NCBI GenBank assembly: GCA_963667925.1
Contig: OY764080.1
Location: 2,379,226-2,443,225 of the forward strand
DNA: 64,000 nt
Origin: Chloroflexota bacterium
Lineage (GTDB): Bacteria > Chloroflexota > UBA11872
Reading direction: 5' to 3'
In this document: one piece after another, positions 3,750-64,000 of the stretch
Layout of the letters: each line of letters starts with the position of its first letter
Numbering within the stretch: position 1 is the first letter of the stretch
Translations under genes and position numbers: made by a program
The notes under the pieces: model-generated
Seen by the model: only the letters and a program-made list of their open reading frames with translations
Database searches by the model: none
What the model was told of the DNA's origin: nothing

Positions 3750-6700
3750 TTAGGCCGCAGGCGTTCGCACGATGTGCGCCGGCACGTCCTGAACGGCGCG
3801 CTCGGCCCAGTGTGGGTCGGCGGTGAAGAGGAACACCTGCCGGTCGCCGGGCATGTTGGCCAATGCTGCAAGGCCGCTGGCGGTCCGTCCCGGATCCCAG
3901 TTGACGAACATCTCATCGAGGAACAGCGGCAGCGGCTCGTCACCTTCCACGAGATCGACCATGGCCAGCCGCAACGCGAAGTAAATCTGTTGAATCGTCC
4001 CGCGGCTCAGCGGCGTATCCACATCCTGAGGAAAGTCCTCGCCGGTCCGCCGAACCTGGAGATTGGCCCCCGAAGAACTGGCGTCGTCGACACTCAGCAG
4101 GTCATATCGTTCGTGCGTGAAGCCGCGTAGGTATCGGCCCGCCACAGAGAGCAATGGCGACTGATATCGGTCGCGATACGACGTGTCGGCTTCCTGCACC
4201 AGCTTCTGCAGAAGGGCTACCCGGTCGTGCTCCCGGCGCACGAAATCCAGGCGCTCCTCCGCAGCTCTGATGGCACCCATTATGTGAGCAGGCCCCGGCT
4301 CGTCCATCCACCGATTGCGCTCCGTAGTTATTCTGCCGCGCTCATCCGCCAGGTCTTGGGCTGTCCGTCGCAGCTCCTCTGCTTCACGTCGGCTCTCAAC
4401 CCGTTCAGCGTCGCTGAGACCTATCTGAACGCCACCGTCCAGAAGCTGCTCGGCCTCGACGAATCGCTGCCGCCAGTCGGGGACGTCGCGCTCAAGCTCA
4501 AGCAGTACGCGTCGTGCTTCGGCGCGCAGATCGAACGCATGCAGCACCCGCTCGAGTCCAACCTCGGGGTTGGCACCGTGCGGATCAACGACGGCGAGTG
4601 AGGCGTCGATTCGTTCGAGTTTGACGTGACCATCGTCAAGCTCCTCGCCACAAGCCTCAAGCTGCTGGCGGAGGCCTGGAATCTCGGCATCTGCGATGTT
4701 GGCAATACGTTTGGTTTCCAACGCGTCTTCCAGCGCCCGCCGCGCGGCTGGCGCCGCCTCGAAGGGGTCAACGGGCAGTTCAATTGCGAGTTCCTCCCGC
4801 AGGCGTGTCACCCCGTCGTACCAGGCCTTAAGACTTGCGGCCACTTGTCGCCTATTGCGGCGCAGACGTTGGGCGCTGCCTACAATCTGGCGCATGTCTT
4901 CCAGGTCTCGGACCATGGCTTCATTAGGCGTTTCACGCTGTACTGGCGCGATCGGCACGTCTGCAACTACTGACAGAAACTCCGCATGCGCCTCGCCGGA
5001 GGCCGTCGCGGCCCGCTCTACCTCGGCCTCCGCAGCCTCTAGCTCAGCCTGGCCTGCCTCGAGTTCCTGGCGCAGCCGCATCACGTCAGCCTTGGCTTGC
5101 TCTGCGGCGCGCTCAACCTCCAGCGCATCCTGAAGCGCCCGCCGCGCGGCCGGTGCCGAGTCGAAAGGATCTACCGGCAGGTCGCGCCCAAGCGTCGGCA
5201 TCAACCGCTCGACTTCGTCTCGCCAGGCGGCCAGCCGTGAAGCCACAGCTTCTCGATTTCGCCGCAGTCGCTCGGCACTGCTCAGCATCAGACGCATCTC
5301 TTCTAAGTCGCGGACCAAGCCCTCATCAGGAGTCTCATGCTGTACTGGCGCGATCGGCACATCCGCAACTACCGACAGAAACTCCGCATGCGCTTTGCTC
5401 GCTGCCGTAGCGGCCCGCTCAACCTCGGCCTCCGCCGCCTCTAGCTCCGCCTGGCCTGCCTCAAGTTCCTGGCGCAGCCGCATCACGTCAGCCTTGGCTT
5501 GCTCTGCGGCGCGCTCAACCTCCAGCGCATCCTGTAGTGCCCGCCGCGCGGCCGGTGTCGCCTCGAAAGGGTTTTCCGGCAGGTCGCGCCCAATCGTCGG
5601 CGTCAACCGCTCGACTTCGCCTCGCCAGGCGGCCAGCCGTGTTGCCACAGCTTCTCGATTTCGCCGCAGTCGCTCGGCGCTGCTCAGCATCAGACGCATC
5701 TCTTCTAGGTCGCGAAGCAGCCCCTCGTCCGGCGCCTCGAGGTGAATCCGAGCGACGGGGACATCCGCAACTACCGTTAGAAACTTCTCGTGCGCCCTCT
5801 CGGCCGTTCTTTCGTTGGCCATGACGCGCTCACGTGCTTCGACTTCGGATTCCTTCGCGTCTGCCATTTGCTCGAGCACGTCGTCGCGCCGCATGGCGGC
5901 GTCTCGACTTTTCTGAGTCCGCTTGACCTCGGCCTCAAGATCGGCGTCGAACTCGAGCCCTAGTCGATGGAGCCGCGATTCCAATCCGACGCTGGCCTTC
6001 TTCTGACGTCGGCGCGACCAACTTTTATTCGCAGCGACGGAAGCAACTACGGTCAGCACAGCCGCCACTGCAACAATGACAAGCACCCCAATCGGCGCGC
6101 TAAACGCGAAGGTAAATGAGAGGGCCAGCGCGCCGAGCAGGATCGGTATCGCTATCCAGGCAGCTGCATTCAGCGTCACCGGAGCCGAGATCAGAGCCTG
6201 GTAACGCGCAATGTGGTGGAGTTCTCGCAACCGGTCGTCGAGTTCAGCGCGGCTGTGCTCGGTCGCGACGGACTCAAGTCTCCGCTTCAAGCGGGCGCGA
6301 TTTGACTCAGCAGCTTGAAAGTCAACAACGGCGGCAGCCCGCTGCCGCACCGCAGCCTGCAGATTGGCAAAGCGTCCGCGCAATTCGCCCACAGAGAGCT
6401 TGAGCACCGCAATCCGCGTGTCTGCATCGACCTGATCCGTTCTCAGTATCCGTCCGGCAATCTCGCGCAGAGAGTCGTTGATGCCACGCGCCTCGGAATC
6501 AATGCTCGCAAGGCTCTCCTGGTTTTCCTGAGCACGGGAGAGTTCGCGGTCGAGACGCTCAATGTCAGTGCGAGCACCTAGCAGCGCAAGCATCCGATCC
6601 TCGATCTCGAGCGCCTGTTCACGCTCCTCAATCGCGAGTTGGGTTTCCCGTTGCTGAACCTGGAGTTGCACCAGACGATCACTAACCGACTGCACCTCTT

Positions 6701-8231
6701 GCCGGGACTCCCGCCACGCGGCGAAGCGCCCTCGTAACTCGGCCACCGAGATCGTGAGGAGTGCTCTGCGGGTAGCAGAGTCAATCTGATCGCACGTGAG
6801 CGTGCGCCCGGCGACTTCACGGAGTGCGCCGTCGCTGCGTTGCAGCTCTGCATTCATGCTCCGCACCCGGTCTTGGTTTTCCTGCGCGCGCGATGTCTCG
6901 CGGTCCAAGCGTTCGATATCCTCACGGACCTCCAGAAGCGCGCAGGTACCAACGTCAACCTCCAGCGCGGCTTCGCGGTCCGCGATCCTCTTACAGATGT
7001 CGTCTTGCCCAGACTGAAGCCGCTTCAGGCGACTATCCGCTGCGTCAAGCAGATTCCGGGAATCCCGCCAGCCGGCGAAGCGCCCACGCAATTCGACCAC
7101 TGAGAGTTCGTTAATCGCGCGGCAGACGCCTTCGTCAAGCTGTTCCACTGTGAGCACGCGCGCCGCCAGTTCTTGCAGCCCACCGTCGCTGCGCTGCAAC
7201 TCACTATCCATGCTCCTGATGCGATCACGATCCTCTTGCGCGCGAGACAGCTCGCGGTCCAGTCGCTCGACATCAGCGCGGGCAACCAAGAGACGGCGGA
7301 TTCCCGCCTCAACTTCACGCGCCTTCTCGCGCTTCGCGATCTTCACCCGAAGATCCTTCCGCTGTGCCGTGAGCTTCTCCGAGCGATCACGAAGTCTCGC
7401 TCGCTCTTCGGCGACACCGTCCCAGGTGTCGCCTCCGGGTGCCAGGTCCGCAGCCCGTGCTTCGAGTCCACGAAGACGGCCGACCCGTCGAACCAGAGGT
7501 GCCAGCGTGCGGTCCCGCTCTAGCGCTAGCTCAATGCGCTGTAGTTTTCGTTCATTTGCTGCCAGGTCTGAGGCAATCCCCCGCAGTCGCTCATCTGCCT
7601 GCTCGATCCGGCCACGGTGCTCACGAGCCTCGGCCAGGCTCCCGCGCAACCGCCGAATCTGATCGGTAAGCTCGCGGTGTGCCGGCTTCCCGCGACGATC
7701 GGACCGCCAGAGGCGCCGGCGGTCAGCCTCCAGGGCACGCACGATTTCGCGCGATGGCCGCAGATAGTCAAATGGACTTCCACCCAGCAGATTCTGCACG
7801 GCCTGCCAAGCCTGCTGATCAAGCCGGAGCGCCTCGTCTTGAGTCAAGGCATACACGTTCTTGAAGACGGCGCGGTCCATGAGGCCAGTCCAAGGAACCT
7901 GTCGATTGGCAAGATCGCCCTCGTCGCTGTTAATCCTGATTCGTCCAAACGGCCGCGCTCGGAGTCGACGTGCAACGCTAGCCAGATCGCCGTTGCGCAG
8001 CACAACATCCAGTCGACCGTGCGGATACTGTCCGCCCCAGGGTCGATAAGGATGGCCGTCGGCCGTGGCCGGAGAGAATCCGAACATTGCGCTGGTAAAA
8101 AACTCAAAGAGCGCGCTCTTCCCGGATTCGTTGGGACCGAGAACGACAACCACGTCATGGTCAGCAAGGCCCTTTGTCGACCAATCCGTGATTGGTCCAA
8201 AGTCAGCTATAGACCAACCCTCAACCCTCAC
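3750..8231 (-). CDS. Giant SMC/SbcC/Rad50-like AAA ATPase (YhaN/SbcF type, 1493 aa)
   Basis: N-terminal Walker A (VVVLGPNESGKSALFEFF); C-terminal signature LSRGTIQQIYFALRLAM and Walker B LPLFLDEMFVNWD. Between them, long coiled-coil arms with internal tandem repeats and a ~45-aa hydrophobic segment (AAWIAIPILLGALALSFTFAFSAPIGVLVIVAVAAVLTVVASVAA). 4-nt overlap with the upstream phosphoesterase gene. Confidence 0.8.
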   Translation of the reverse strand: MRVEGWSIADFGPITDWSTKGLADHDVVVVLGPNESGKSALFEFFTSAMFGFSPATADGHPYRPWGGQYPHGRLDVVLRNGDLASVARRLRARPFGRIRINSDEGDLANRQVPWTGLMDRAVFKNVYALTQDEALRLDQQAWQAVQNLLGGSPFDYLRPSREIVRALEADRRRLWRSDRRGKPAHRELTDQIRRLRGSLAEAREHRGRIEQADERLRGIASDLAANERKLQRIELALERDRTLAPLVRRVGRLRGLEARAADLAPGGDTWDGVAEERARLRDRSEKLTAQRKDLRVKIAKREKAREVEAGIRRLLVARADVERLDRELSRAQEDRDRIRSMDSELQRSDGGLQELAARVLTVEQLDEGVCRAINELSVVELRGRFAGWRDSRNLLDAADSRLKRLQSGQDDICKRIADREAALEVDVGTCALLEVREDIERLDRETSRAQENQDRVRSMNAELQRSDGALREVAGRTLTCDQIDSATRRALLTISVAELRGRFAAWRESRQEVQSVSDRLVQLQVQQRETQLAIEEREQALEIEDRMLALLGARTDIERLDRELSRAQENQESLASIDSEARGINDSLREIAGRILRTDQVDADTRIAVLKLSVGELRGRFANLQAAVRQRAAAVVDFQAAESNRARLKRRLESVATEHSRAELDDRLRELHHIARYQALISAPVTLNAAAWIAIPILLGALALSFTFAFSAPIGVLVIVAVAAVLTVVASVAANKSWSRRRQKKASVGLESRLHRLGLEFDADLEAEVKRTQKSRDAAMRRDDVLEQMADAKESEVEARERVMANERTAERAHEKFLTVVADVPVARIHLEAPDEGLLRDLEEMRLMLSSAERLRRNREAVATRLAAWRGEVERLTPTIGRDLPENPFEATPAARRALQDALEVERAAEQAKADVMRLRQELEAGQAELEAAEAEVERAATAASKAHAEFLSVVADVPIAPVQHETPDEGLVRDLEEMRLMLSSAERLRRNREAVASRLAAWRDEVERLMPTLGRDLPVDPFDSAPAARRALQDALEVERAAEQAKADVMRLRQELEAGQAELEAAEAEVERAATASGEAHAEFLSVVADVPIAPVQRETPNEAMVRDLEDMRQIVGSAQRLRRNRRQVAASLKAWYDGVTRLREELAIELPVDPFEAAPAARRALEDALETKRIANIADAEIPGLRQQLEACGEELDDGHVKLERIDASLAVVDPHGANPEVGLERVLHAFDLRAEARRVLLELERDVPDWRQRFVEAEQLLDGGVQIGLSDAERVESRREAEELRRTAQDLADERGRITTERNRWMDEPGPAHIMGAIRAAEERLDFVRREHDRVALLQKLVQEADTSYRDRYQSPLLSVAGRYLRGFTHERYDLLSVDDASSSGANLQVRRTGEDFPQDVDTPLSRGTIQQIYFALRLAMVDLVEGDEPLPLFLDEMFVNWDPGRTASGLAALANMPGDRQVFLFTADPHWAERAVQDVPAHIVRTPAA
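4540..5742. repeat. Intragenic tandem direct repeat, 3 x 402 bp (134 aa), in the C-terminal coiled-coil arm of the SMC-like ATPase
   Basis: Units starting at 4939 and 5341 begin with the identical ctgtactggcgcgatcggcac and are near-identical over long stretches. A third copy (~4540-4938) is more diverged. Confidence 0.85.
6440..7500. repeat. Intragenic tandem repeat, 3 x ~350 bp (~110-117 aa), in the N-terminal coiled-coil arm of the same gene
   Basis: Recurrent LERLDRELSRAQE(D/N)(R/Q)DR(I/V)RSM(D/N)(S/A)ELQRSDG(G/A)L(Q/R)E(L/V)A protein motif. DNA motif gcggtc(g/c)a(g/a)(a/t)cg(c/t)tc(a/g)a(t/c)at at ~6541, ~6891 and ~7245. Confidence 0.7.
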
Positions 8232-30677: not shown

Positions 30678-31721
30678 ATGCAGTTTGCCATTGTCGGATA
30701 CGGCAAGTCGGGTCGCGCGTTCGGAAGGCTGATCCAGTCGTTGCCGGGCGCATCGGTCAGTTGCGTGGTCGACTCTGATCGACGTCGCGCCGAAGTGGGC
30801 GCCAGCGACTTGAACGCCGGGACGTGGAGCAACAACGCCCAGGTTGCCTTGCGTTCCGCGAGTGTGGACGCTGTCGTCATATCGACACCGCATGACTGCC
30901 ATGCGCAACTAGCCCGCGACGCGCTGGACCGCGGGCTGCATGTCCTCCTTGAACCGCCTCTGGCCCTACGTCATCCGGACGCGCAGCACGTCTTGGGCTA
31001 TGCACGAGCAGCCCGCACGGCCTTGGCCATTAACTTCTGGATGCGCGCGATTCCCGGCGTGCGTCGTATTCGAGGCCGCATTCCGCGTCCCACATTCGTT
31101 CAAGTCGAATGCGTCGTTCATCCGCTGTCCGAGTCCTGGATGGGGAAAGCTGAGCACGGCGGCGTCATGGGCTTGCTCGGGAGCCACGCATTGGACCTGA
31201 CCAGCCATCTCATGCAGTCGAAGCCACTCCACGCCCAGGCCATGGGGGGGCGTCACACGCGACGGGCGGCTCTTGCCGACACCGTGGCCATTGGCGTCCG
31301 ATTCGCGAACGGAGGACTTGCTCGTGTGCTTGTGGGCGAATTTGGCCGCGCCCGAGCCAGCACCCCGTGGCGCGCACTTGCAACCGACGGCGTAATCACG
31401 GCGACCGCCCGGGGCAGCTTGCCGCTTGGCGAATCTGGATCGAGTCACGATCGAGAAGCCGAATCTGCCTATTCAAATGAGGCGTGGGCGGCGCAGTGCG
31501 AGAGCCTTACGGCGTTCGCAAACGCCGCAGCCGGACGAGGCGAGCCCCTGGCCGGGGTCGACGACGGCGTACGAGCTGTCCACCTCGCCGATGCGGCCTA
31601 TGAAGCCATGGGTTCACGCCGGCGCGTATCAATCACCGCGACATCGCTACCTGATGCCGTCGGACCCGTCTACGGAGATGATTCCGTCGCGCACCGCCGT
31701 GACCACGGCTTCCGTGCGTGA
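30678..31721 (+). CDS. Gfo/Idh/MocA family oxidoreductase
   Basis: Rossmann N-terminus FAIVGYGKSG. 3' end overlaps the convergent response-regulator gene by 75 nt. Confidence 0.75.
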   Translation: MQFAIVGYGKSGRAFGRLIQSLPGASVSCVVDSDRRRAEVGASDLNAGTWSNNAQVALRSASVDAVVISTPHDCHAQLARDALDRGLHVLLEPPLALRHPDAQHVLGYARAARTALAINFWMRAIPGVRRIRGRIPRPTFVQVECVVHPLSESWMGKAEHGGVMGLLGSHALDLTSHLMQSKPLHAQAMGGRHTRRAALADTVAIGVRFANGGLARVLVGEFGRARASTPWRALATDGVITATARGSLPLGESGSSHDREAESAYSNEAWAAQCESLTAFANAAAGRGEPLAGVDDGVRAVHLADAAYEAMGSRRRVSITATSLPDAVGPVYGDDSVAHRRDHGFRA

Positions 31722-32303
31722 GCGAACCCGCAACTTGCCGTAGACACTGCTGAGGTGCGCCTCCACGGTCTTGGCCGAAACACCCAGGGATTCTGCGGCC
31801 TCGCGATTGGACGCGCCCTCGGCGACGAGTCGCAGTACGTCCAGTTCGCGCATCGTGAGCGGCTCGGCGACTGAGCGCCCCCCTCCTGAATCGGGCGCAG
31901 CCTCCGGCACTTCATGAAAGAAGGTCTGCCCGGCATGAACGCGCCGAACCGCGTCCGCCAGGCCCGCGGTGTCCAGATCCTTCAGCACATATCCCGCGAC
32001 TCCCGCGTCGCGCATGGATTGCACATAGTCGGACTGGCCGTAAGCCGAAACCACCAGGACTCGGGTCGCCGGCGCGATGTGTGCCAGGCGCCGAGCCAAC
32101 GCGGGCCCGCCGCCGGGAATACGAAAGTCAAGAAGGCAGACATCGGGTGAAGAACTCCGGCAGGCACGCTCCGCGGCGGCCGCGTCGCCGGCCGTTCCCA
32201 CAACTTCAACATCCGGGACATTGGCCAGCACCGCCGCGGTTCCTTCGCGAACCATGGCGTGGTCGTCCACAAGCAGCACGCGGATCGGGCGACTGCCGCT
32301 CAC
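31647..32303 (-). CDS. Two-component response regulator, NarL/LuxR family
   Basis: REC domain (IRVLLVDDHAMVREG) plus LuxR HTH (REAAESLGVSAKTVEAH). 4-nt overlap with the kinase gene. Confidence 0.9.
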   Translation of the reverse strand: MSGSRPIRVLLVDDHAMVREGTAAVLANVPDVEVVGTAGDAAAAERACRSSSPDVCLLDFRIPGGGPALARRLAHIAPATRVLVVSAYGQSDYVQSMRDAGVAGYVLKDLDTAGLADAVRRVHAGQTFFHEVPEAAPDSGGGRSVAEPLTMRELDVLRLVAEGASNREAAESLGVSAKTVEAHLSSVYGKLRVRSRTEAVVTAVRDGIISVDGSDGIR

Positions 32304-34837
32304 GAACGAGTGACTTCCGCTGGATGTAATGGAGCCTCAACCGTCAGGACGGTCGGCCCTCCGGGCTGAGAATCCACGTGCATGCGACCACCCAGGCGGC
32401 TGAACCGCTCCTGGAGGCCGGCAAGGCCCAGGTGCCCCACGGCCGCGTAGGCGGTCAGATCCGACGAAGCCGGGAAGCCACATCCGTCGTCCTGAATCGA
32501 TAACCGAATCGCGTCAGCCGCGCACGTAAGTCGAATTCGCACGCGGGACGCCTGCGAATGCCGCAGGGCATTGTTCAACGCCTCCTGGGCCGCGCGGTAA
32601 ATGTTCGTCTCTACGTCCGTGTCCGGTCGCTGAACGTCGGGCGTGCCGTCAATCTGGAGGTCAATTGTGAAGGGTGCGGCTCGCCCCGCCTCCTCCACAA
32701 GCCAGCGCAACGCCGCTTCCAATCCCAGGTCGTCCAATACCGGCGGGCGAAGTCGTTCGCAGATCTCCCGCAAATCCCCGGCGGCCGTATCCACCAGGTG
32801 CAGAAGCGCGTCACGGCTGCGGTAGGGCCCTGGCGCCGCCGAGCGCAAGGCGCGTTGCAGCAGCACCAGCTTCTGCAGCGGCTCGTCATGCAGATCGCGC
32901 GAAATACGTTGCCGCTCCGCCTCCAACATGCCGTTGACCTGGTCATACAGGTCACTCAGCGTCTGTTGGCTGTCTTGGAGACGCTGCGCCGTCTCGTCGA
33001 GTTCCCGGAGACGATCCTGCAACTGCCCCCACAGATCCACCCGCACCATGAAGCTGGCAAGTTGATTGGCCAACGCATCCAGCAAGTTGGCATCCGCCTG
33101 GCTGAACCCAAACGACTCTTCGCGAATCGAAGCCACCACATAGGCCACCACCGACTCATCGATCTTGCACGGAACGACGACCGCTGCAATTTCCGAAAGT
33201 CCGCCGCCGCCGGCAGCCACCACCGCCGAACGGACCTGGGCGTCATCCGGTGTGGGGGCCAGGTTGTTGAAATCGATGGCCACGAGCTTGTGCGGCGGAG
33301 TTGCACGCGTTACAGCGATCCAGTCAAGGCCACTCACGCGTCGGACCGGGCCCAGGACCGACCCGGCAAGCTGATCGATGGAGGCCGTCGACGCCAACGC
33401 GGCGCTGGCCGTTCGCATCACCCGTTGCGTGTCGTAGCTGTCCTGGTACACCCAACCGGACAACGCTCGAAGAACCAGCCAGCGCGCAAAGGGCATCGTC
33501 ACACCGATGCCAACCAGGGCCGCCGCCAGCATCCACACCACCGGCAACGCCCCGGCGCGGTCGGTCAGGTAGCGACCGATCACACCGACCAGCAGCGCGT
33601 AAAACGTAAACAGCAAGATCCAGGCCGCGCCGTGAAGGAACAGGGTTCGCAGTACCCGCTGGAACCGGATCCGCCACGTCGGAACCGCCACGTGGGCAAC
33701 CCCCAGCGCGGTGGCTCCGATAGCCAGCAGGGACACCGAATAAGGAAGGATCTCGGTACCGCTGACAACCGCCGGCACAAGCGAGAGCGCGGTTGGCGGC
33801 AGCGCTGCCGTCAGAAACGTGGCCAGTAGGACCCGAGCCACCCGCCGGTCACGGGGAAACGTGATATCCACAAGCGTGACCAGGCACTTGGCAAGGAGCG
33901 CGGTAAGCCCGAGGGCCGGAAGAAGCGCGACCGTCACCCAGGCCGCGTTATACAACTCCGGCCGGCCCTGGTAGGACGCCACGAGCACCGCCACTGGTCC
34001 TGCCAGAGCGGTAACCGCCAGGGCCGGGACGAACGGCACCATGAAGGCTGGTCCACGAATAGGACAGACGGCCGCGAACCACAGCAAGGCAACGCCCGTC
34101 GCGCCAGTCGCTGCAAAGACCAGCAGCGTCAGCGCGCCTTCGGCGTCCGGTGCCACGGAACCCAGCGAAAGAGCGATGGCCACGCCAAACAGGGCGGCCG
34201 TGGCCGCTCGCAGCAGTCGGCGCCGCCCGTAGAGAGCCACAACCGCACCGCCGGCCGCGAAGACCGTCGCCAGCACTAGCGTGGTGGCGCGCATGGCCGG
34301 ATCGAGACCCGGGAACGGGATCGCTAGACCGGTCTGTGGATCGGCGAGCGACCCTGGGTCAATCGCCGCGTTTAGCTCGACGGGCCGTCCAGTCGCTTCT
34401 CCCGCGGGCCCATTCCACGCAACCGCCTCGCCGGCGCTCAGCCCGGCGCGCCAGGCGGGCCCGCCCGGCGACACGCGCTCGATCAGCCACTGCCCCTGCT
34501 CGGCCGCTACGACCGTCGCCCCGTGCTCGAACGGCTGCATCGCAACCGTTGTGGCCAGGACCAGTGCCGAGACCCACAGCGTCAGACCGAACGCAACGGG
34601 AACAACCCGGCGCGGCCAAATTCGGGCCAGGCCGCCGCGCCGACGATTCTCCGCGGCGAGCCACTCACCGAGGCTCTGACGACGTGTGCGATTAGCGGGT
34701 CGAGCCAGCAGATTGCCCCCCCAGCAGCGGGCACTCCCAGCATACGCTCGCAACCCCGTCCCGACGCAGGCAACTTGCGGCCGCTGGTCTTCACCCTTTC
34801 CCAGGAAAGAGGCAGATGCCCCCGTCTTCGGCGACAA
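32300..34837 (-). CDS. Multi-TM sensor histidine kinase (HisKA_3 + HATPase_c; NarX/LiaS-like)
   Basis: Many N-terminal TM helices, a GAF-like middle region, H-box DLHDEPLQKL and an ATPase domain. The ORF-track start includes one of the upstream repeat copies, so the true start is probably <=34750. Confidence 0.8.
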   Translation of the reverse strand: MSPKTGASASFLGKGEDQRPQVACVGTGLRAYAGSARCWGGNLLARPANRTRRQSLGEWLAAENRRRGGLARIWPRRVVPVAFGLTLWVSALVLATTVAMQPFEHGATVVAAEQGQWLIERVSPGGPAWRAGLSAGEAVAWNGPAGEATGRPVELNAAIDPGSLADPQTGLAIPFPGLDPAMRATTLVLATVFAAGGAVVALYGRRRLLRAATAALFGVAIALSLGSVAPDAEGALTLLVFAATGATGVALLWFAAVCPIRGPAFMVPFVPALAVTALAGPVAVLVASYQGRPELYNAAWVTVALLPALGLTALLAKCLVTLVDITFPRDRRVARVLLATFLTAALPPTALSLVPAVVSGTEILPYSVSLLAIGATALGVAHVAVPTWRIRFQRVLRTLFLHGAAWILLFTFYALLVGVIGRYLTDRAGALPVVWMLAAALVGIGVTMPFARWLVLRALSGWVYQDSYDTQRVMRTASAALASTASIDQLAGSVLGPVRRVSGLDWIAVTRATPPHKLVAIDFNNLAPTPDDAQVRSAVVAAGGGGLSEIAAVVVPCKIDESVVAYVVASIREESFGFSQADANLLDALANQLASFMVRVDLWGQLQDRLRELDETAQRLQDSQQTLSDLYDQVNGMLEAERQRISRDLHDEPLQKLVLLQRALRSAAPGPYRSRDALLHLVDTAAGDLREICERLRPPVLDDLGLEAALRWLVEEAGRAAPFTIDLQIDGTPDVQRPDTDVETNIYRAAQEALNNALRHSQASRVRIRLTCAADAIRLSIQDDGCGFPASSDLTAYAAVGHLGLAGLQERFSRLGGRMHVDSQPGGPTVLTVEAPLHPAEVTRS

Positions 34838-35044
34838 TCGGTGAGCAACTGTGTTGAGGCGCCCGGCTCTTCACCCTCTCCAAGGGGAGAGGCAGGACCT
34901 TTCCTGAGCCAGCCGAAGGATTCGGCCGTCTTCGGCCGAAACCGGAGAGGGGTCTTCCGCTCATGCGCCCCACCCCAGCACCACGCAAGGACGCAACCCA
35001 CGACAGGCCGCGCCCCTCTTCACGCTCTCCGAGGGGAGAGGCAG
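34786..35044. repeat. Three copies of a ~30-bp palindromic repeat (CTCTTCACCCTCTCCAAGGGGAGAGGCAG) in the intergenic region upstream of the two-component operon
   Basis: Copies at 34786-34815, 34866-34896 and 35014-35044. Each holds the inverted repeat CCTCTCC-N4-GGAGAGG, and two are followed by a second small palindrome (GGCCGTCTTCGGCC). Confidence 0.8.
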
Positions 35045-35059
35045 GTTCGGCCGTCCTCG

Positions 35060-35896
35060 CTAGACGGCCACCGCCTCCACCGCGGCCGGAGCCGCGTCGC
35101 CGCCGGCAAAACCGCAGAATTCCTCGTAGTCGATCAGTTCCGTGATCGTCGGAGCGTCGCCGCAAACGGGGCACTCCGGGTCACGCCGCAGCTTCAACTC
35201 ACGGAATTCCATCTCCATGGCGTCAAGCAGCAGCAAGCGTCCCGACAGCGAGTTGCCAATGCCCGCAATGAGCTTCAGCACCTCGGTAGCCTGGATCAGC
35301 CCGATCAGGCCTGGCAAAACCCCAAGCACGCCGGCCTCCGCGCAACTCGGCGCCATCTCCGGTGGGGGCGGCGTCGGGTAAAGGCAGCGGTAGCAGCCGG
35401 CGCCGGGCTCAAACACCGTCGCCATGCCCTCAAAGCGCATGACACTCCCATCCACCAGTGGCTTTCCGAGGAAGTAGGCGGCGTCGTTCGCGAGATACCG
35501 GGTGGGAAAGTTGTCGCAGCCGTTGACCACAATGTCGTACGGCTCCAGGATTTCAAACGCGTTGTCGGAGGTCAGCGGCTCGTCGTGGCGCACCACGGTC
35601 ACGTCCGGATTCAGGCCGGTTAACGTCGCTTCCGCCGAGGCGGTCTTCGGCATCCCAACCCGATCGTCGCGGTGCAGAATCTGTCGTTGCAGGTTTGAAC
35701 GGTCGACGGTATCGAAGTCCACCACGCCCAGCGTGCCCACCCCTGCGGCGGCCAGGTAATAGAGCACGGGCGAGCCAAGCCCGCCGGCGCCAATGGCCAG
35801 CACTTTGGCATTGAGAATCTTGGCCTGGCCGGCCGCCCCAACCTCGGGCAGCAACATGTGGCGGCTGTAACGTTGAACTTGCTCAACGGTGAACAC
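35060..35896 (-). CDS. ThiF/MoeB-family E1-like adenylyltransferase (MoeZ/MoeB-type, with two CxxC zinc motifs)
   Basis: LAIGAGGLGSPVLYYLAAAGVG..DFDTVDRSNLQRQ; CYRC and CPVC motifs. Confidence 0.85.
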   Translation of the reverse strand: MFTVEQVQRYSRHMLLPEVGAAGQAKILNAKVLAIGAGGLGSPVLYYLAAAGVGTLGVVDFDTVDRSNLQRQILHRDDRVGMPKTASAEATLTGLNPDVTVVRHDEPLTSDNAFEILEPYDIVVNGCDNFPTRYLANDAAYFLGKPLVDGSVMRFEGMATVFEPGAGCYRCLYPTPPPPEMAPSCAEAGVLGVLPGLIGLIQATEVLKLIAGIGNSLSGRLLLLDAMEMEFRELKLRRDPECPVCGDAPTITELIDYEEFCGFAGGDAAPAAVEAVAV

Positions 35897-46218: not shown

Positions 46219-46413
46219 CCAGCCGAAGGGCCTGCCCTGAGCCTGTCGAAGGGGATACCCGCCTTCATCCCCGTCCTCTCTCACTCCTCTGCCCTCTCCA
46301 CTCTCCCCGTCGCCGCGTCTCAGACCCGCCCGTCTTCCGCGCAACCCGCATCGCGACAGCAACCCAGCCAGCGCGAAGAGACCCATGCCCCACAGCCTCT
46401 CCAGCGAAACACC

Positions 46414-62505: not shown

Positions 62506-62598
62506 ATGACCCATCAAAGAGCATGCTTATTAGTAATGTATCATGATACTTACACTCAATCATACACGACCACAATAGAAGATCTTAGGCACTGCTAA
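62506..62598 (+). CDS. Candidate 30-codon leader/small ORF (MTHQRACLLVMYHDTYTQSYTTTIEDLRHC) with strong SD, rare TTA-TTA codons, and TAATG coupling to the downstream gene
   Basis: SD AAAAGGAG 5 nt upstream of the ATG at 62506. Stop TAA (62596-62598) overlaps the ATG at 62598. Codon usage is extremely AT-rich for this genome. Confidence 0.4.
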   Translation: MTHQRACLLVMYHDTYTQSYTTTIEDLRHC

Positions 62599-63899
62599 TG
62601 CTACGCAAAAGGATAGGCAATCAGGCGCATCGGAATGGTGGTGTGCAGTTGGGGGAGGCTCGGGCTATGACGGAGACGTTGAGAATGCGCGAACAGCGAC
62701 GGTCAACAGTTTGGGAACGAGTCCGGCTTGGGCTGGCGGCCGTTGCCGCGGCCAGCCTGACGATTGCGGGGCCAGTGACCGCGTTGCGGGCGCTGGACTG
62801 TGTGGGCATACCCATCAGCGACGGCTGCCTGTTTGCCAACACCGGCGGCGACACGCCTGATCCGAACGACGGGTATGCCGTGACCAACGCCGATAGCGTC
62901 CCGATGTGGGACTTCGTACGCGAGGCTGAGGCTGAGGCCATTGGATACCCGATCAGTCAGCGCTGGCTGGACGGACCGTTCACGCTGCAGGCATTCCAGA
63001 AGGTGATTCTGCAGTGGGACCCGGCCAACGCACGGATGAACTACTACAACACGCTGGACGTGTTGGCCAACCGCTACCCGCACATCGAGCTGCCCAACGT
63101 GCCGGCGCACCAGGTGCTGGCGGCGGACGTAGGCGCGGACTTCGAGACGGTCAAGCAGAACCACCTCGCGATCCTGGATGAGAACCCCGGAATCAAGGCG
63201 CGGTTCCTTGGCGAACCGGACTGGCTCAACCTGTACGGGCTGCCGATTCGGTACGAGGAACGGGAAGTCGATGGCAATCCGCAGGGACTGCAACTGCTGC
63301 GCGCGCAGCGGGCCGTGTTCGCGGTCTGGAACGTGCCAGCGCCCGGGACGACCCCTGGCGAGGTAGTGCTTCAGAACCTTCCGGACAAGGTAAAGCAACT
63401 GAGCAACGTGATTGTTCCCGACGCGACCGAGGCGCCCCTGACGCCCGGGCAGCTGAACGCATTTGAGCCGCAGCAGATACACCGACGCTCCGATGAGGAC
63501 GAGGGCAGCGGCGACGACGAGCGTGCGGTCGACGACCCGCCCGGGACGGACAACGACGGCTTTGACACGACCGCCAATACCGACCACGACGGCTTCGATA
63601 CCACCGCCAATACCGATCACGATGGTTTGGACACGACGGCCAACACCGACAATGACGGAGTCGACACCACCGCGAACACCGATCACGATGGTTTCGACAC
63701 CACCGCCAATACCGACCACGACGGCTTTGATACCACGGCCAACACTGACTACGACGGATTCGACACGACGGCCAACACCGACCACGACGGTTTCGACACC
63801 ACCGCGAATACCGACCATGACGGCTTCGACACCACAGGCAATGAGAACGAGGACACCGACGACACTGCTGAGGACGACAGCGAAGACGACAGCGATTAG
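62598..63899 (+). CDS. Secreted protein with C-terminal acidic tandem repeats (9 x DHDGFDTTANT) and Asp/Glu-rich tail
   Basis: Signal-peptide-like LGLAAVAAASLTIAGPVTALRA; N-terminal domain of unknown function; 11-aa repeats with an EF-hand/DxDxDG-like N-x-D-x-D-G core. An alternative start is the ATG at 62667. Confidence 0.6.
   Translation: MLRKRIGNQAHRNGGVQLGEARAMTETLRMREQRRSTVWERVRLGLAAVAAASLTIAGPVTALRALDCVGIPISDGCLFANTGGDTPDPNDGYAVTNADSVPMWDFVREAEAEAIGYPISQRWLDGPFTLQAFQKVILQWDPANARMNYYNTLDVLANRYPHIELPNVPAHQVLAADVGADFETVKQNHLAILDENPGIKARFLGEPDWLNLYGLPIRYEEREVDGNPQGLQLLRAQRAVFAVWNVPAPGTTPGEVVLQNLPDKVKQLSNVIVPDATEAPLTPGQLNAFEPQQIHRRSDEDEGSGDDERAVDDPPGTDNDGFDTTANTDHDGFDTTANTDHDGLDTTANTDNDGVDTTANTDHDGFDTTANTDHDGFDTTANTDYDGFDTTANTDHDGFDTTANTDHDGFDTTGNENEDTDDTAEDDSEDDSD
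63547..63843. repeat. Tandem 33-bp coding repeat x9 (ACCGACCACGACGGCTTCGACACCACCGCCAAT consensus)
   Basis: Read directly from the sequence; copies differ at a few synonymous or conservative positions. Confidence 0.9.
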
Positions 63900-64000
63900 G
63901 CGGTGACCGTCTCCAAGGTGACCTCCGTGGCGCTTGCACCCCGGATCGATTTCCCCGCCGATCGCGGAGTTCGGGCACTGCAGCGACTGTTCGACGGCGC

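Follow-up and report, generated by a model that had tools for sequence, protein, structure and literature searches.

We analyzed a 64,000-nucleotide (nt) stretch of the genome of a Chloroflexota bacterium (contig OY764080.1, positions 2,379,226 to 2,443,225), hereafter called the window, and in it three palindromic repeats that lie upstream of the genes for a sensor histidine kinase and a NarL/LuxR-type response regulator. A preliminary description had proposed these repeats as operators through which the regulator would control its own operon. We conclude instead that they very probably make up a short array, in direct orientation, of an intergenic repeat built of hairpin modules, comparable to repetitive extragenic palindromes (REP) or miniature inverted-repeat transposable elements (MITE), which is dispersed in a clade of Chloroflexota, and that they are not sites for the regulator. 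The operator role is abandoned because the repeats are missing from orthologous spacers, are scattered in unrelated intergenic regions and are oriented by GC skew and not by genes.

Three copies of the repeat in the window

A search of the window with the 29-nt sequence initially reported gave one exact match (34867-34895), one match with 2 mismatches (35016-35044) and one with 5 mismatches (34787-34815), and no further copy elsewhere in the 64 kb. In shuffled sequence 0 matches are expected, and the three copies are thus far above chance. A covariance model built from 144 related copies, searched over the whole window with filters off, likewise returned exactly three significant matches, all on the minus strand, the next best scoring 9 bits. 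The presence of three repeats, and of only three, is therefore confirmed by both methods. All of them are located between the stop codon of a thiF gene and the histidine-kinase gene.

The full-length copy (34862-34971, minus strand; 58.5 bits, model positions 1-88) opens with the leader GCGGAAGAC-CCCTCTCCG, continues with a first hairpin, A (TTCGGCCG-AAGA-CGGCCGAA, 34921-34940), and a second one, B (CCTCTCC-CCTT-GGAGAGG, 34875-34892), and ends with GTGAAGAG. An additional 24-nt hairpin module, TCCTTCGGCTGGCTCAGGAAAGGT, is inserted between hairpins A and B, and the copy is predicted to fold into three hairpins (-30.8 kcal/mol, z about -3.7 to -4.0 on either strand). The copy beside thiF (35009-35059, minus strand) is truncated at its 5' end, with a covariance model match at 35009-35094 (36.6 bits, model positions 28-88). 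It begins in the loop of hairpin A, followed by hairpin B (GCTCTCC/GGAGAGG) and GTGAAGAG, and the 29-nt match lies inside it. The remaining 3' arm of hairpin A and the last thiF codons together make another hairpin, GGCCGTC-TAGCGAG-GACGGCC (35049-35069, minus strand), whose loop contains the thiF stop codon (35060-35062); the DNA fold of 35009-35075 reaches -18.1 kcal/mol (z -1.9). These two copies are separated by a semi-conserved spacer module (CGGCGCGGCC...GGGGCGCATGAGCGG, 34972-35008, minus strand), delimited by comparison of the arrays of the window and of loci L001, L027 and L102, and seen again between tandem copies of other genomes. Finally, the third copy (34780-34845, minus strand; 46.1 bits) is degenerate: its 5' part is a variant (GTTGCTCACCG) and its hairpins are decayed, the palindrome CTTTC-CTGG-GAAAG being shifted in register and the fold not exceeding the shuffled level (z -0.4). 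Compensatory changes in hairpin B of this copy were considered and rejected, the in-register pairs being broken and the palindrome being shifted and weak.

The inverted heptamers and the mini-palindrome of the preliminary description correspond respectively to hairpin B and hairpin A of the unit. The perfect heptamers CCTCTCC-N4-GGAGAGG, attributed to each repeat, are found in the middle copy only; the copy at 35016 has lost the outer pair (GCTCTCC...GGAGAGG) and the one at 34787 is degenerate. As to the mini-palindrome GGCCGTCTTCGGCC, said to accompany two copies, it is exact only once (34924-34937), the other two copies having degenerate or different versions of it.

Two other assignments were discarded. 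A scan of 34600-35150 did not reveal any consensus promoter or terminator site at the copies, and their reading as promoters or terminators was dropped. A CRISPR array was rejected in view of start-to-start spacings of 80 and 149 nt and of 'spacers' that are themselves repeated in other genomes; no cas domain was detected among the eight flanking open reading frames (ORFs) scanned (29.3-38.0 kb).

A modular unit dispersed in Chloroflexota

A scan for the exact pattern CCTCTCCYCTYGGAGAGNGNNAAGA, restricted to one genome per species, retrieved, among the matches listed, at least 115 stretches in at least 22 assemblies, nearly all from Chloroflexota, with at least 16 separate 8-kb stretches in the richest metagenome-assembled genome (MAG) and a few variant copies in Acidobacteriota/Terriglobia. 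When a copy is counted for up to 5 mismatches in a 28-nt core, the 0.93 Mb of fetched loci contain at least 219 copies. The canonical form accounts for 161 of these 219, and 33 have an extra hairpin module between A and B, as does the full-length copy of the window. We found no description of this family in full-text literature searches, which were narrow.

The canonical unit, defined by conservation around the core, is about 80 nt long. Written on the minus strand of the window, it reads (G)GTTGCGCGGAAGAC-CCCTCACCG, hairpin A (ATTTCGGCCG-AAGA-CGGCCGAAT), CTG, hairpin B (CCTCTCC-CCTT-GGAGAGG), GTGAAGAG and CGGCG. The consensus drawn from 144 copies has conserved flanks, GGAAGAC-CCCTCACCG on one side and GTGAAGAG on the other, and the motif GAAGA(C) recurs at both the 5' and the 3' end of the unit as well as in the hairpin A loop.

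The pairing of hairpin A is well supported by compensatory changes. Among 144 distinct copies, 7 of its 9 pairs display changes on both sides, and 115 such cells are counted in the whole structure. A standard pair occupies 95.8% of the cells, versus 37-55% in controls where the 3' partners were displaced by 1-3 columns, and none of 500 shuffles reaches the observed covariation values. RNAalifold also proposed a long-range pairing of CCCTCACC with GGAGAGGG; the columns concerned show no variation, so that this pairing is neither supported nor excluded.

Modules also differ between orthologous copies. Indeed, comparison of loci L107 and L112 shows a 24-nt module, TCCTTCGGCAAGCTCAGGACAGGT, that is present in one and cleanly absent in the other, and because of this clean difference we consider that hairpin modules are gained and lost as units.

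Absence from orthologous spacers

The close homologues of the kinase (69-99% identity) come from Chloroflexota MAGs, and the gene order rhodanese-thiF-kinase-regulator is kept in six other fetched loci. L001, whose kinase is 99% identical, is the sole orthologous locus with repeats, and its array differs from that of the window in the number and type of units. In L002, L004, L121, L122 and L123, where the kinases are 81-90% identical, the thiF-kinase spacers are short, unrelated and devoid of any copy. The genome containing L004 nevertheless has the element elsewhere (L098, L100, L110). The array, carried only by the window genome and by its relative with the 99% identical kinase, and already divergent between them, thus appears to have entered the thiF-kinase spacer recently.

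The empty site of L002 reads TAGCGAAGAC joined to CACTGGGCC, and the filled site of the window reads TAGCGAGGAC, then the array ending in GGGTGAAGAC, then CAGCGGCC. In this comparison of a filled with an empty site, the array sits directly after GA(A/G)GAC. An automated search for more such pairs by BLAST of the flanks proved too noisy, the flanks holding other repeat families.

Gene context and strand polarity

Genes were predicted in the fetched loci with a simple codon-usage finder, whose strand calls agree with the called genes of L001 and L004. On this basis 214 of the 219 copies (98%) fall outside predicted genes. Between co-directional genes, copies are sense in 30 intergenic regions and antisense in 32; 31 regions with copies lie between convergent genes and 15 between divergent ones. 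Clusters are direct, orientation being mixed in a single intergenic region out of 145. These counts therefore reveal no tie to promoters or to the direction of transcription, with a mild preference for the 3' ends of genes. The preliminary description had retained REP- or MITE-like elements as its alternative, and had named numerous intergenic copies with no promoter association as what would speak against operators; this is the situation that we observe.

Orientation follows GC skew, whatever the direction of the genes. With the elements masked, 99 of 103 loci show a positive skew on the strand of the element, the mean being +0.13. A similar skew is found within predicted genes, at +0.15 (78 of 80 loci) for those sharing the direction of the element and +0.14 (77 of 88 loci) for those opposed to it. 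Around the element, the skew can be followed over 5 kb or more in each direction, and its sign is constant over loci that are hundreds of kilobases to 2 Mb apart on one chromosome. In the window the minus strand, on which all three copies lie, is G-rich over 1-52 kb, which is consistent with this polarity rule.

Such data leave little room for the inverted heptamers as autoregulatory operators of the adjacent regulator. GerE/NarL-type regulators bind inverted repeats, and the repeats do stand upstream of the kinase-regulator operon. However, the five orthologous loci without repeats have kept a 218-amino-acid regulator and a conserved leader motif; copies in other genomes occupy all intergenic contexts, including those between convergent gene ends; their orientation tracks GC skew; and one of the three copies of the window is decayed. 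Moreover, the block GCGTATGCTGG, which is conserved ahead of the kinase, is found on the downstream side of the repeats. We therefore think that the operator hypothesis can hardly be correct.

One could also wonder whether the elements are selected signals of leading-strand architecture, comparable to Chi or to the FtsK-orienting polar sequences (KOPS), the polarity of which would be kept by selection and not by insertion. Such signals would be expected to share the orientation of the G-rich strand irrespective of transcription, as is seen here at 96%, and the G-rich strand of the element contains GGAGAGGG, one base away from the Escherichia coli KOPS consensus, GGGNAGGG. On the other hand, the known polar signals are 8-mers that also occur inside genes, and not 80-nt intergenic hairpin modules in tandem arrays. 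In addition, copies at the same locus come and go between close relatives, and the density is low and uneven: the 64-kb window contains a single array, and some 80 kb of orthologous loci do not contain any. Since it leaves the hairpins, the intergenic restriction and the rapid turnover unexplained, we consider this hypothesis very improbable, albeit less so than the operators.

Relationship to the whalefall-1 RNA

In a permissive Rfam scan, every copy tested matched RF01762, named whalefall-1, along the full model (positions 1-56 of 56), the match being on the other strand than the one read here. The match in the window (34872-34921, plus strand) scores 19.1 bits for a gathering score of 37, and for the 16 matches listed in five related loci the scores range from 20.4 to 29.3 bits. 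At gathering thresholds, the Rfam scan of the whole window, together with a tRNA/tmRNA scan, did not find anything. By the Rfam threshold the copies are thus not members of RF01762, and by their architecture they are relatives of it. Whalefall-1 has been found only in a whale-fall metagenome and was rated as a non-cis-regulatory RNA (Weinberg et al. 2010, PMC2864571). Our literature search for 'whalefall-1', which was narrow, returned this original paper alone.

This resemblance raises the hypothesis that the elements are structured RNAs, either a two-hairpin small RNA (sRNA) or a 3'-end or stabilising element of mRNAs, as Rfam treats whalefall-1. Indeed, the whole model is matched, with both hairpins and the flanking conserved bases, and Weinberg et al. 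(PMC2864571) considered whalefall-1 as certainly an RNA. The twofold excess of convergent over divergent sites is also what 3'-end elements would give. However, all scores (19-29 bits) are under the gathering threshold, and the balance of sense and antisense copies between co-directional genes indicates no orientation preference and therefore no consistent sense transcript. Element orientation tracks GC skew instead. Direct tandem arrays, many copies per genome and modules gained and lost between orthologues fit poorly with this hypothesis, as does the lack of promoter-like or terminator-like sites at the window copies. In the Rfam orientation, the stem mismatches would be mainly A-C and not G-U. 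As for the strong covariation of hairpin A, which supports an RNA, it is predicted equally by a hairpin formed in single-stranded DNA. Altogether, we regard an RNA function as improbable, while it is the most serious of the rival explanations.

A possible replication-coupled mechanism

The link between orientation and GC skew suggests that the repeats propagate in a replication-coupled manner through single-stranded DNA. In such a scheme the G-rich strand would be the leading strand, so that the strand read here would lie on the lagging-strand template; the elements would spread at the replication fork through a single-stranded intermediate, as IS200/IS605 or REP/RAYT systems do, and would insert next to a GAAGAC motif. 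It is known that elements of the IS200/IS605 family excise from and insert into the single-stranded lagging-strand template (PMC6006769). Two observations fit a site-directed mechanism acting on single strands, namely the position of the array directly after GA(A/G)GAC and the recurrence of GAAGA(C) within the unit. We propose this mechanism tentatively, and with clearly less confidence than the assignment of the repeats to a dispersed intergenic family.

Several points weigh against it or against the repeat assignment itself. The insertion site rests on a single comparison of filled and empty sites, made between different species. The G-rich strand is the leading strand in most bacteria, and this was assumed for the genomes considered here. 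Within the window, moreover, the skew is patchy, with a change of sign near 52 kb. Concerning the hairpins, B is invariant among the aligned copies, a conservation that the search pattern partly forces, and the stems contain 40 G-T mismatches against 9 A-C ones, an excess that could simply mirror the same mutational skew. Furthermore, no Y1/HUH transposase or RAYT was detected in about 1 Mb of loci, where a weak test by tblastn with IS200 TnpA and E. coli RAYT queries gave only chance-level matches. Likewise, none of the 10 genes analyzed with Pfam, out of 13 that are flanked by copies on both sides, encodes a transposase. The genes analyzed have ordinary metabolic or unknown functions (aldo-keto reductase, epimerase, GNAT, DAO, methyltransferase, TauE, GYD), in addition to a DUF559 gene. 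The latter, with a Vsr-like endonuclease fold, is located in an Acidobacteria MAG between variant copies of the element (L016, 2878-3243; CACCCTCTCCCCTCGGAGAGGG...).

The coupling of orientation to skew is nearly complete and independent of transcription. If confirmed on complete chromosomes, it would point to a replication-coupled mobility of short repeats in Chloroflexota, and the elements could then serve to mark replichore structure and rearrangements in MAGs.

Genes of the locus and start of the kinase

Three genes of the minus strand surround or follow the array. The ThiF/MoeB-family adenylyltransferase gene (35060-35896; Pfam ThiF, E 2e-80) adjoins it by its stop codon. The sensor histidine kinase gene (32300-34708) was assigned by its HisKA_3 and HATPase_c Pfam domains and has 22 close homologues; the N-terminal half of the protein is predicted to be a multi-pass membrane region. 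The response regulator gene (31647-32303), assigned by Pfam, combines the Response_reg and GerE domains, and an exact-sequence look-up of its product gave no record. The 3' end of this gene overlaps by about 75 nt (31647-31721) that of a convergent GFO_IDH_MocA oxidoreductase ORF (30678-31721, plus strand), an overlap that the gene calls of all orthologous loci reproduce.

It had been noticed that the longest kinase ORF (32300-34837, 845 amino acids) runs through one repeat, and that the true start should be downstream of the repeats. Both statements hold: the copy concerned is that at 34780-34845, and codon periodicity over seven orthologues begins at 34708. At this position (34706-34708, minus strand) lies a CTG codon, and from CTG-GCT-CGA (34708-34700) onwards variation concentrates at third codon positions, with indels that are not multiples of three upstream. 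L001 carries GTG where the window has CTG. Among the orthologous proteins, P0015 starts exactly at the CTG position (MARAPSRTRRQSLGEW...) and P0022 within the same conserved segment (MTRPRRTPRQSLGAW...); the other starts proposed by gene callers for the orthologues are scattered and downstream. In L001, P0001 was given an ATG start that in the window falls out of frame, and an in-frame TTG of the window at 34753 is not conserved. The conserved CTG is most likely the start codon, because of the onset of periodicity, the upstream indels and the N-termini of P0015 and P0022; the predicted protein would have 802 amino acids and begin with M-A-R-P-A-N-R-T-R-R-Q-S-L-G-E-W. Both candidates, 34708 and 34753, are downstream of all three repeats.

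A conserved non-coding motif, GCGTATGCTGG (34737-34747, minus strand), was revealed by the alignment of seven orthologous loci: 10 of its 11 columns are invariant in all seven regions upstream of the kinase, and it is located downstream of the repeats. It may act as a promoter or leader of the kinase operon, and is a better candidate than the repeats for its control region. Its role as a promoter is put forward by inference, because a consensus scan did not find any sigma-70 promoter in this region. Since the array is inserted between the thiF stop codon and the conserved leader and start of the kinase, the operon's own control region should be sought downstream of the repeats. For annotation, a false regulatory lead is thereby removed and the kinase model is corrected, with 802 amino acids in place of the 845-amino-acid ORF through the repeat.

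Other features of the window and related loci

A second intergenic region of the window (46230-46350, minus strand) contains a repeat of a sister family. Its leader, GGGTTGCGCGGAAGAC, is that of the main element; GGGCGGGTCTGAGACGC... comes next, and then, at some distance, a TTCGACAGGCTCAGGGCAGG module resembling the 24-nt insert of the main element. This repeat, too, lies on the minus strand, which is locally G-rich. In loci L014, L019, L027, L102, L115 and L118, a different repeat family, TGGTTCGACACGGGCCGCCGACGGACTCTGGCCCGGCTCACCACGAACGG, occurs beside the main elements (for example in L118 near 1725, minus strand), and a motif ...TTGCAAAGGTCTC recurs shortly upstream of several start codons. 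The genomes of these loci thus hold several co-oriented intergenic repeat families.

Repeats were also observed inside genes. At 63513-63908, at least nine tandem copies of a 33-nt unit are present in an ORF (62598-63899, plus strand) that gave no Pfam match, implying an 11-residue repeat in the protein. Three copies of a repeat of about 402 nt, 77-82% identical, occupy 4717-5585 in an ORF of 1493 amino acids (3750-8231, minus strand); an AAA_27 domain at its N-terminus suggests a large, internally repeated ATPase-like protein.

As to base composition, GC skew changes from -0.27 (44-48 kb) to +0.20 (52-56 kb), with a minimum of the cumulative skew near 50-52 kb, and G+C is raised to 0.68-0.71 over 36-52 kb. 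A replication origin at the switch near 52 kb was rejected, no DnaA-box cluster or dnaA gene being present there. Neither a DnaA nor a DnaN domain was detected in the ORFs scanned at 46-55 kb, two of which had no Pfam match. Rather than an origin, the switch could correspond to an inversion or to the boundary of an island.

Comparison with known systems

The family shares several features with REP, BIME and REPIN sequences, which are short imperfect extragenic palindromes in many copies, sometimes clustered, with compensatory changes and variable between close relatives. Cleavage by RAYT proteins requires a conserved GTAG-type tetranucleotide 5' of the REP hairpin (PMC6006769). In contrast, the consensus of our 144 copies is devoid of GTAG, and the GAAGAC motif recurs instead. 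Moreover, BIMEs and REPINs are typically inverted doublets, whereas the arrays described here are direct.

A parallel can also be drawn with IS200/IS605 elements and their non-autonomous derivatives, which have hairpins and not terminal inverted repeats, are oriented by the replication-associated strand and not by transcription, and insert 3' of a specific target of 4-5 nt without duplicating it. Our family also has hairpins, and its orientation bias and apparent insertion next to a short motif may be of this kind. The comparison differs in that only candidate ends are available for our family and that the link between GC skew and the direction of replication is assumed. A classical MITE has terminal inverted repeats and a target-site duplication. 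In contrast, the two ends of our unit, GGTTGCGCGGAAGAC... and ...GGGTGAAGAG, do not form an inverted repeat, and GAAGA is found in both of them in the same direction.

The BOX elements of Streptococcus pneumoniae and other modular intergenic repeats are likewise made of a few short modules that vary in number from copy to copy and have stable predicted hairpins; we know of no sequence similarity between BOX elements and the present family.

The closest likeness is with whalefall-1, of which the repeat family is a relative with an unusually clean strand polarity. Both have a conserved CUCUCC-loop-GGAGAG hairpin, an (A/G)CAGA linker, a second, variable and covarying hairpin and then a ..G.GAGG.C (GGUGAGG-like) tail. 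They differ in that the second hairpin has here a GAAGAC-type loop and that our family has an extra conserved leader and optional hairpin modules. Furthermore, whalefall-1 is filed as an sRNA, whereas its relatives described here are multi-copy, intergenic and strand-polarised repeats in Chloroflexota MAGs, which suggests likely host lineages and a genomic behaviour for such sequences. A further hypothesis, which we advance as doubtful and as less probable than the replication-coupled mechanism alone, would be that whalefall-1 and the Chloroflexota family belong to one superfamily of non-autonomous, replication-polarised DNA elements, spread by a putative transposase via single-stranded DNA at the fork. 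Its members would have in common a GGTKGCSCGGAAGAC leader and interchangeable hairpin modules. If this were true, a curated sRNA family of Rfam would really be a mobile DNA repeat, and these genomes would offer a natural system for strand-specific transposition in an uncultured lineage.

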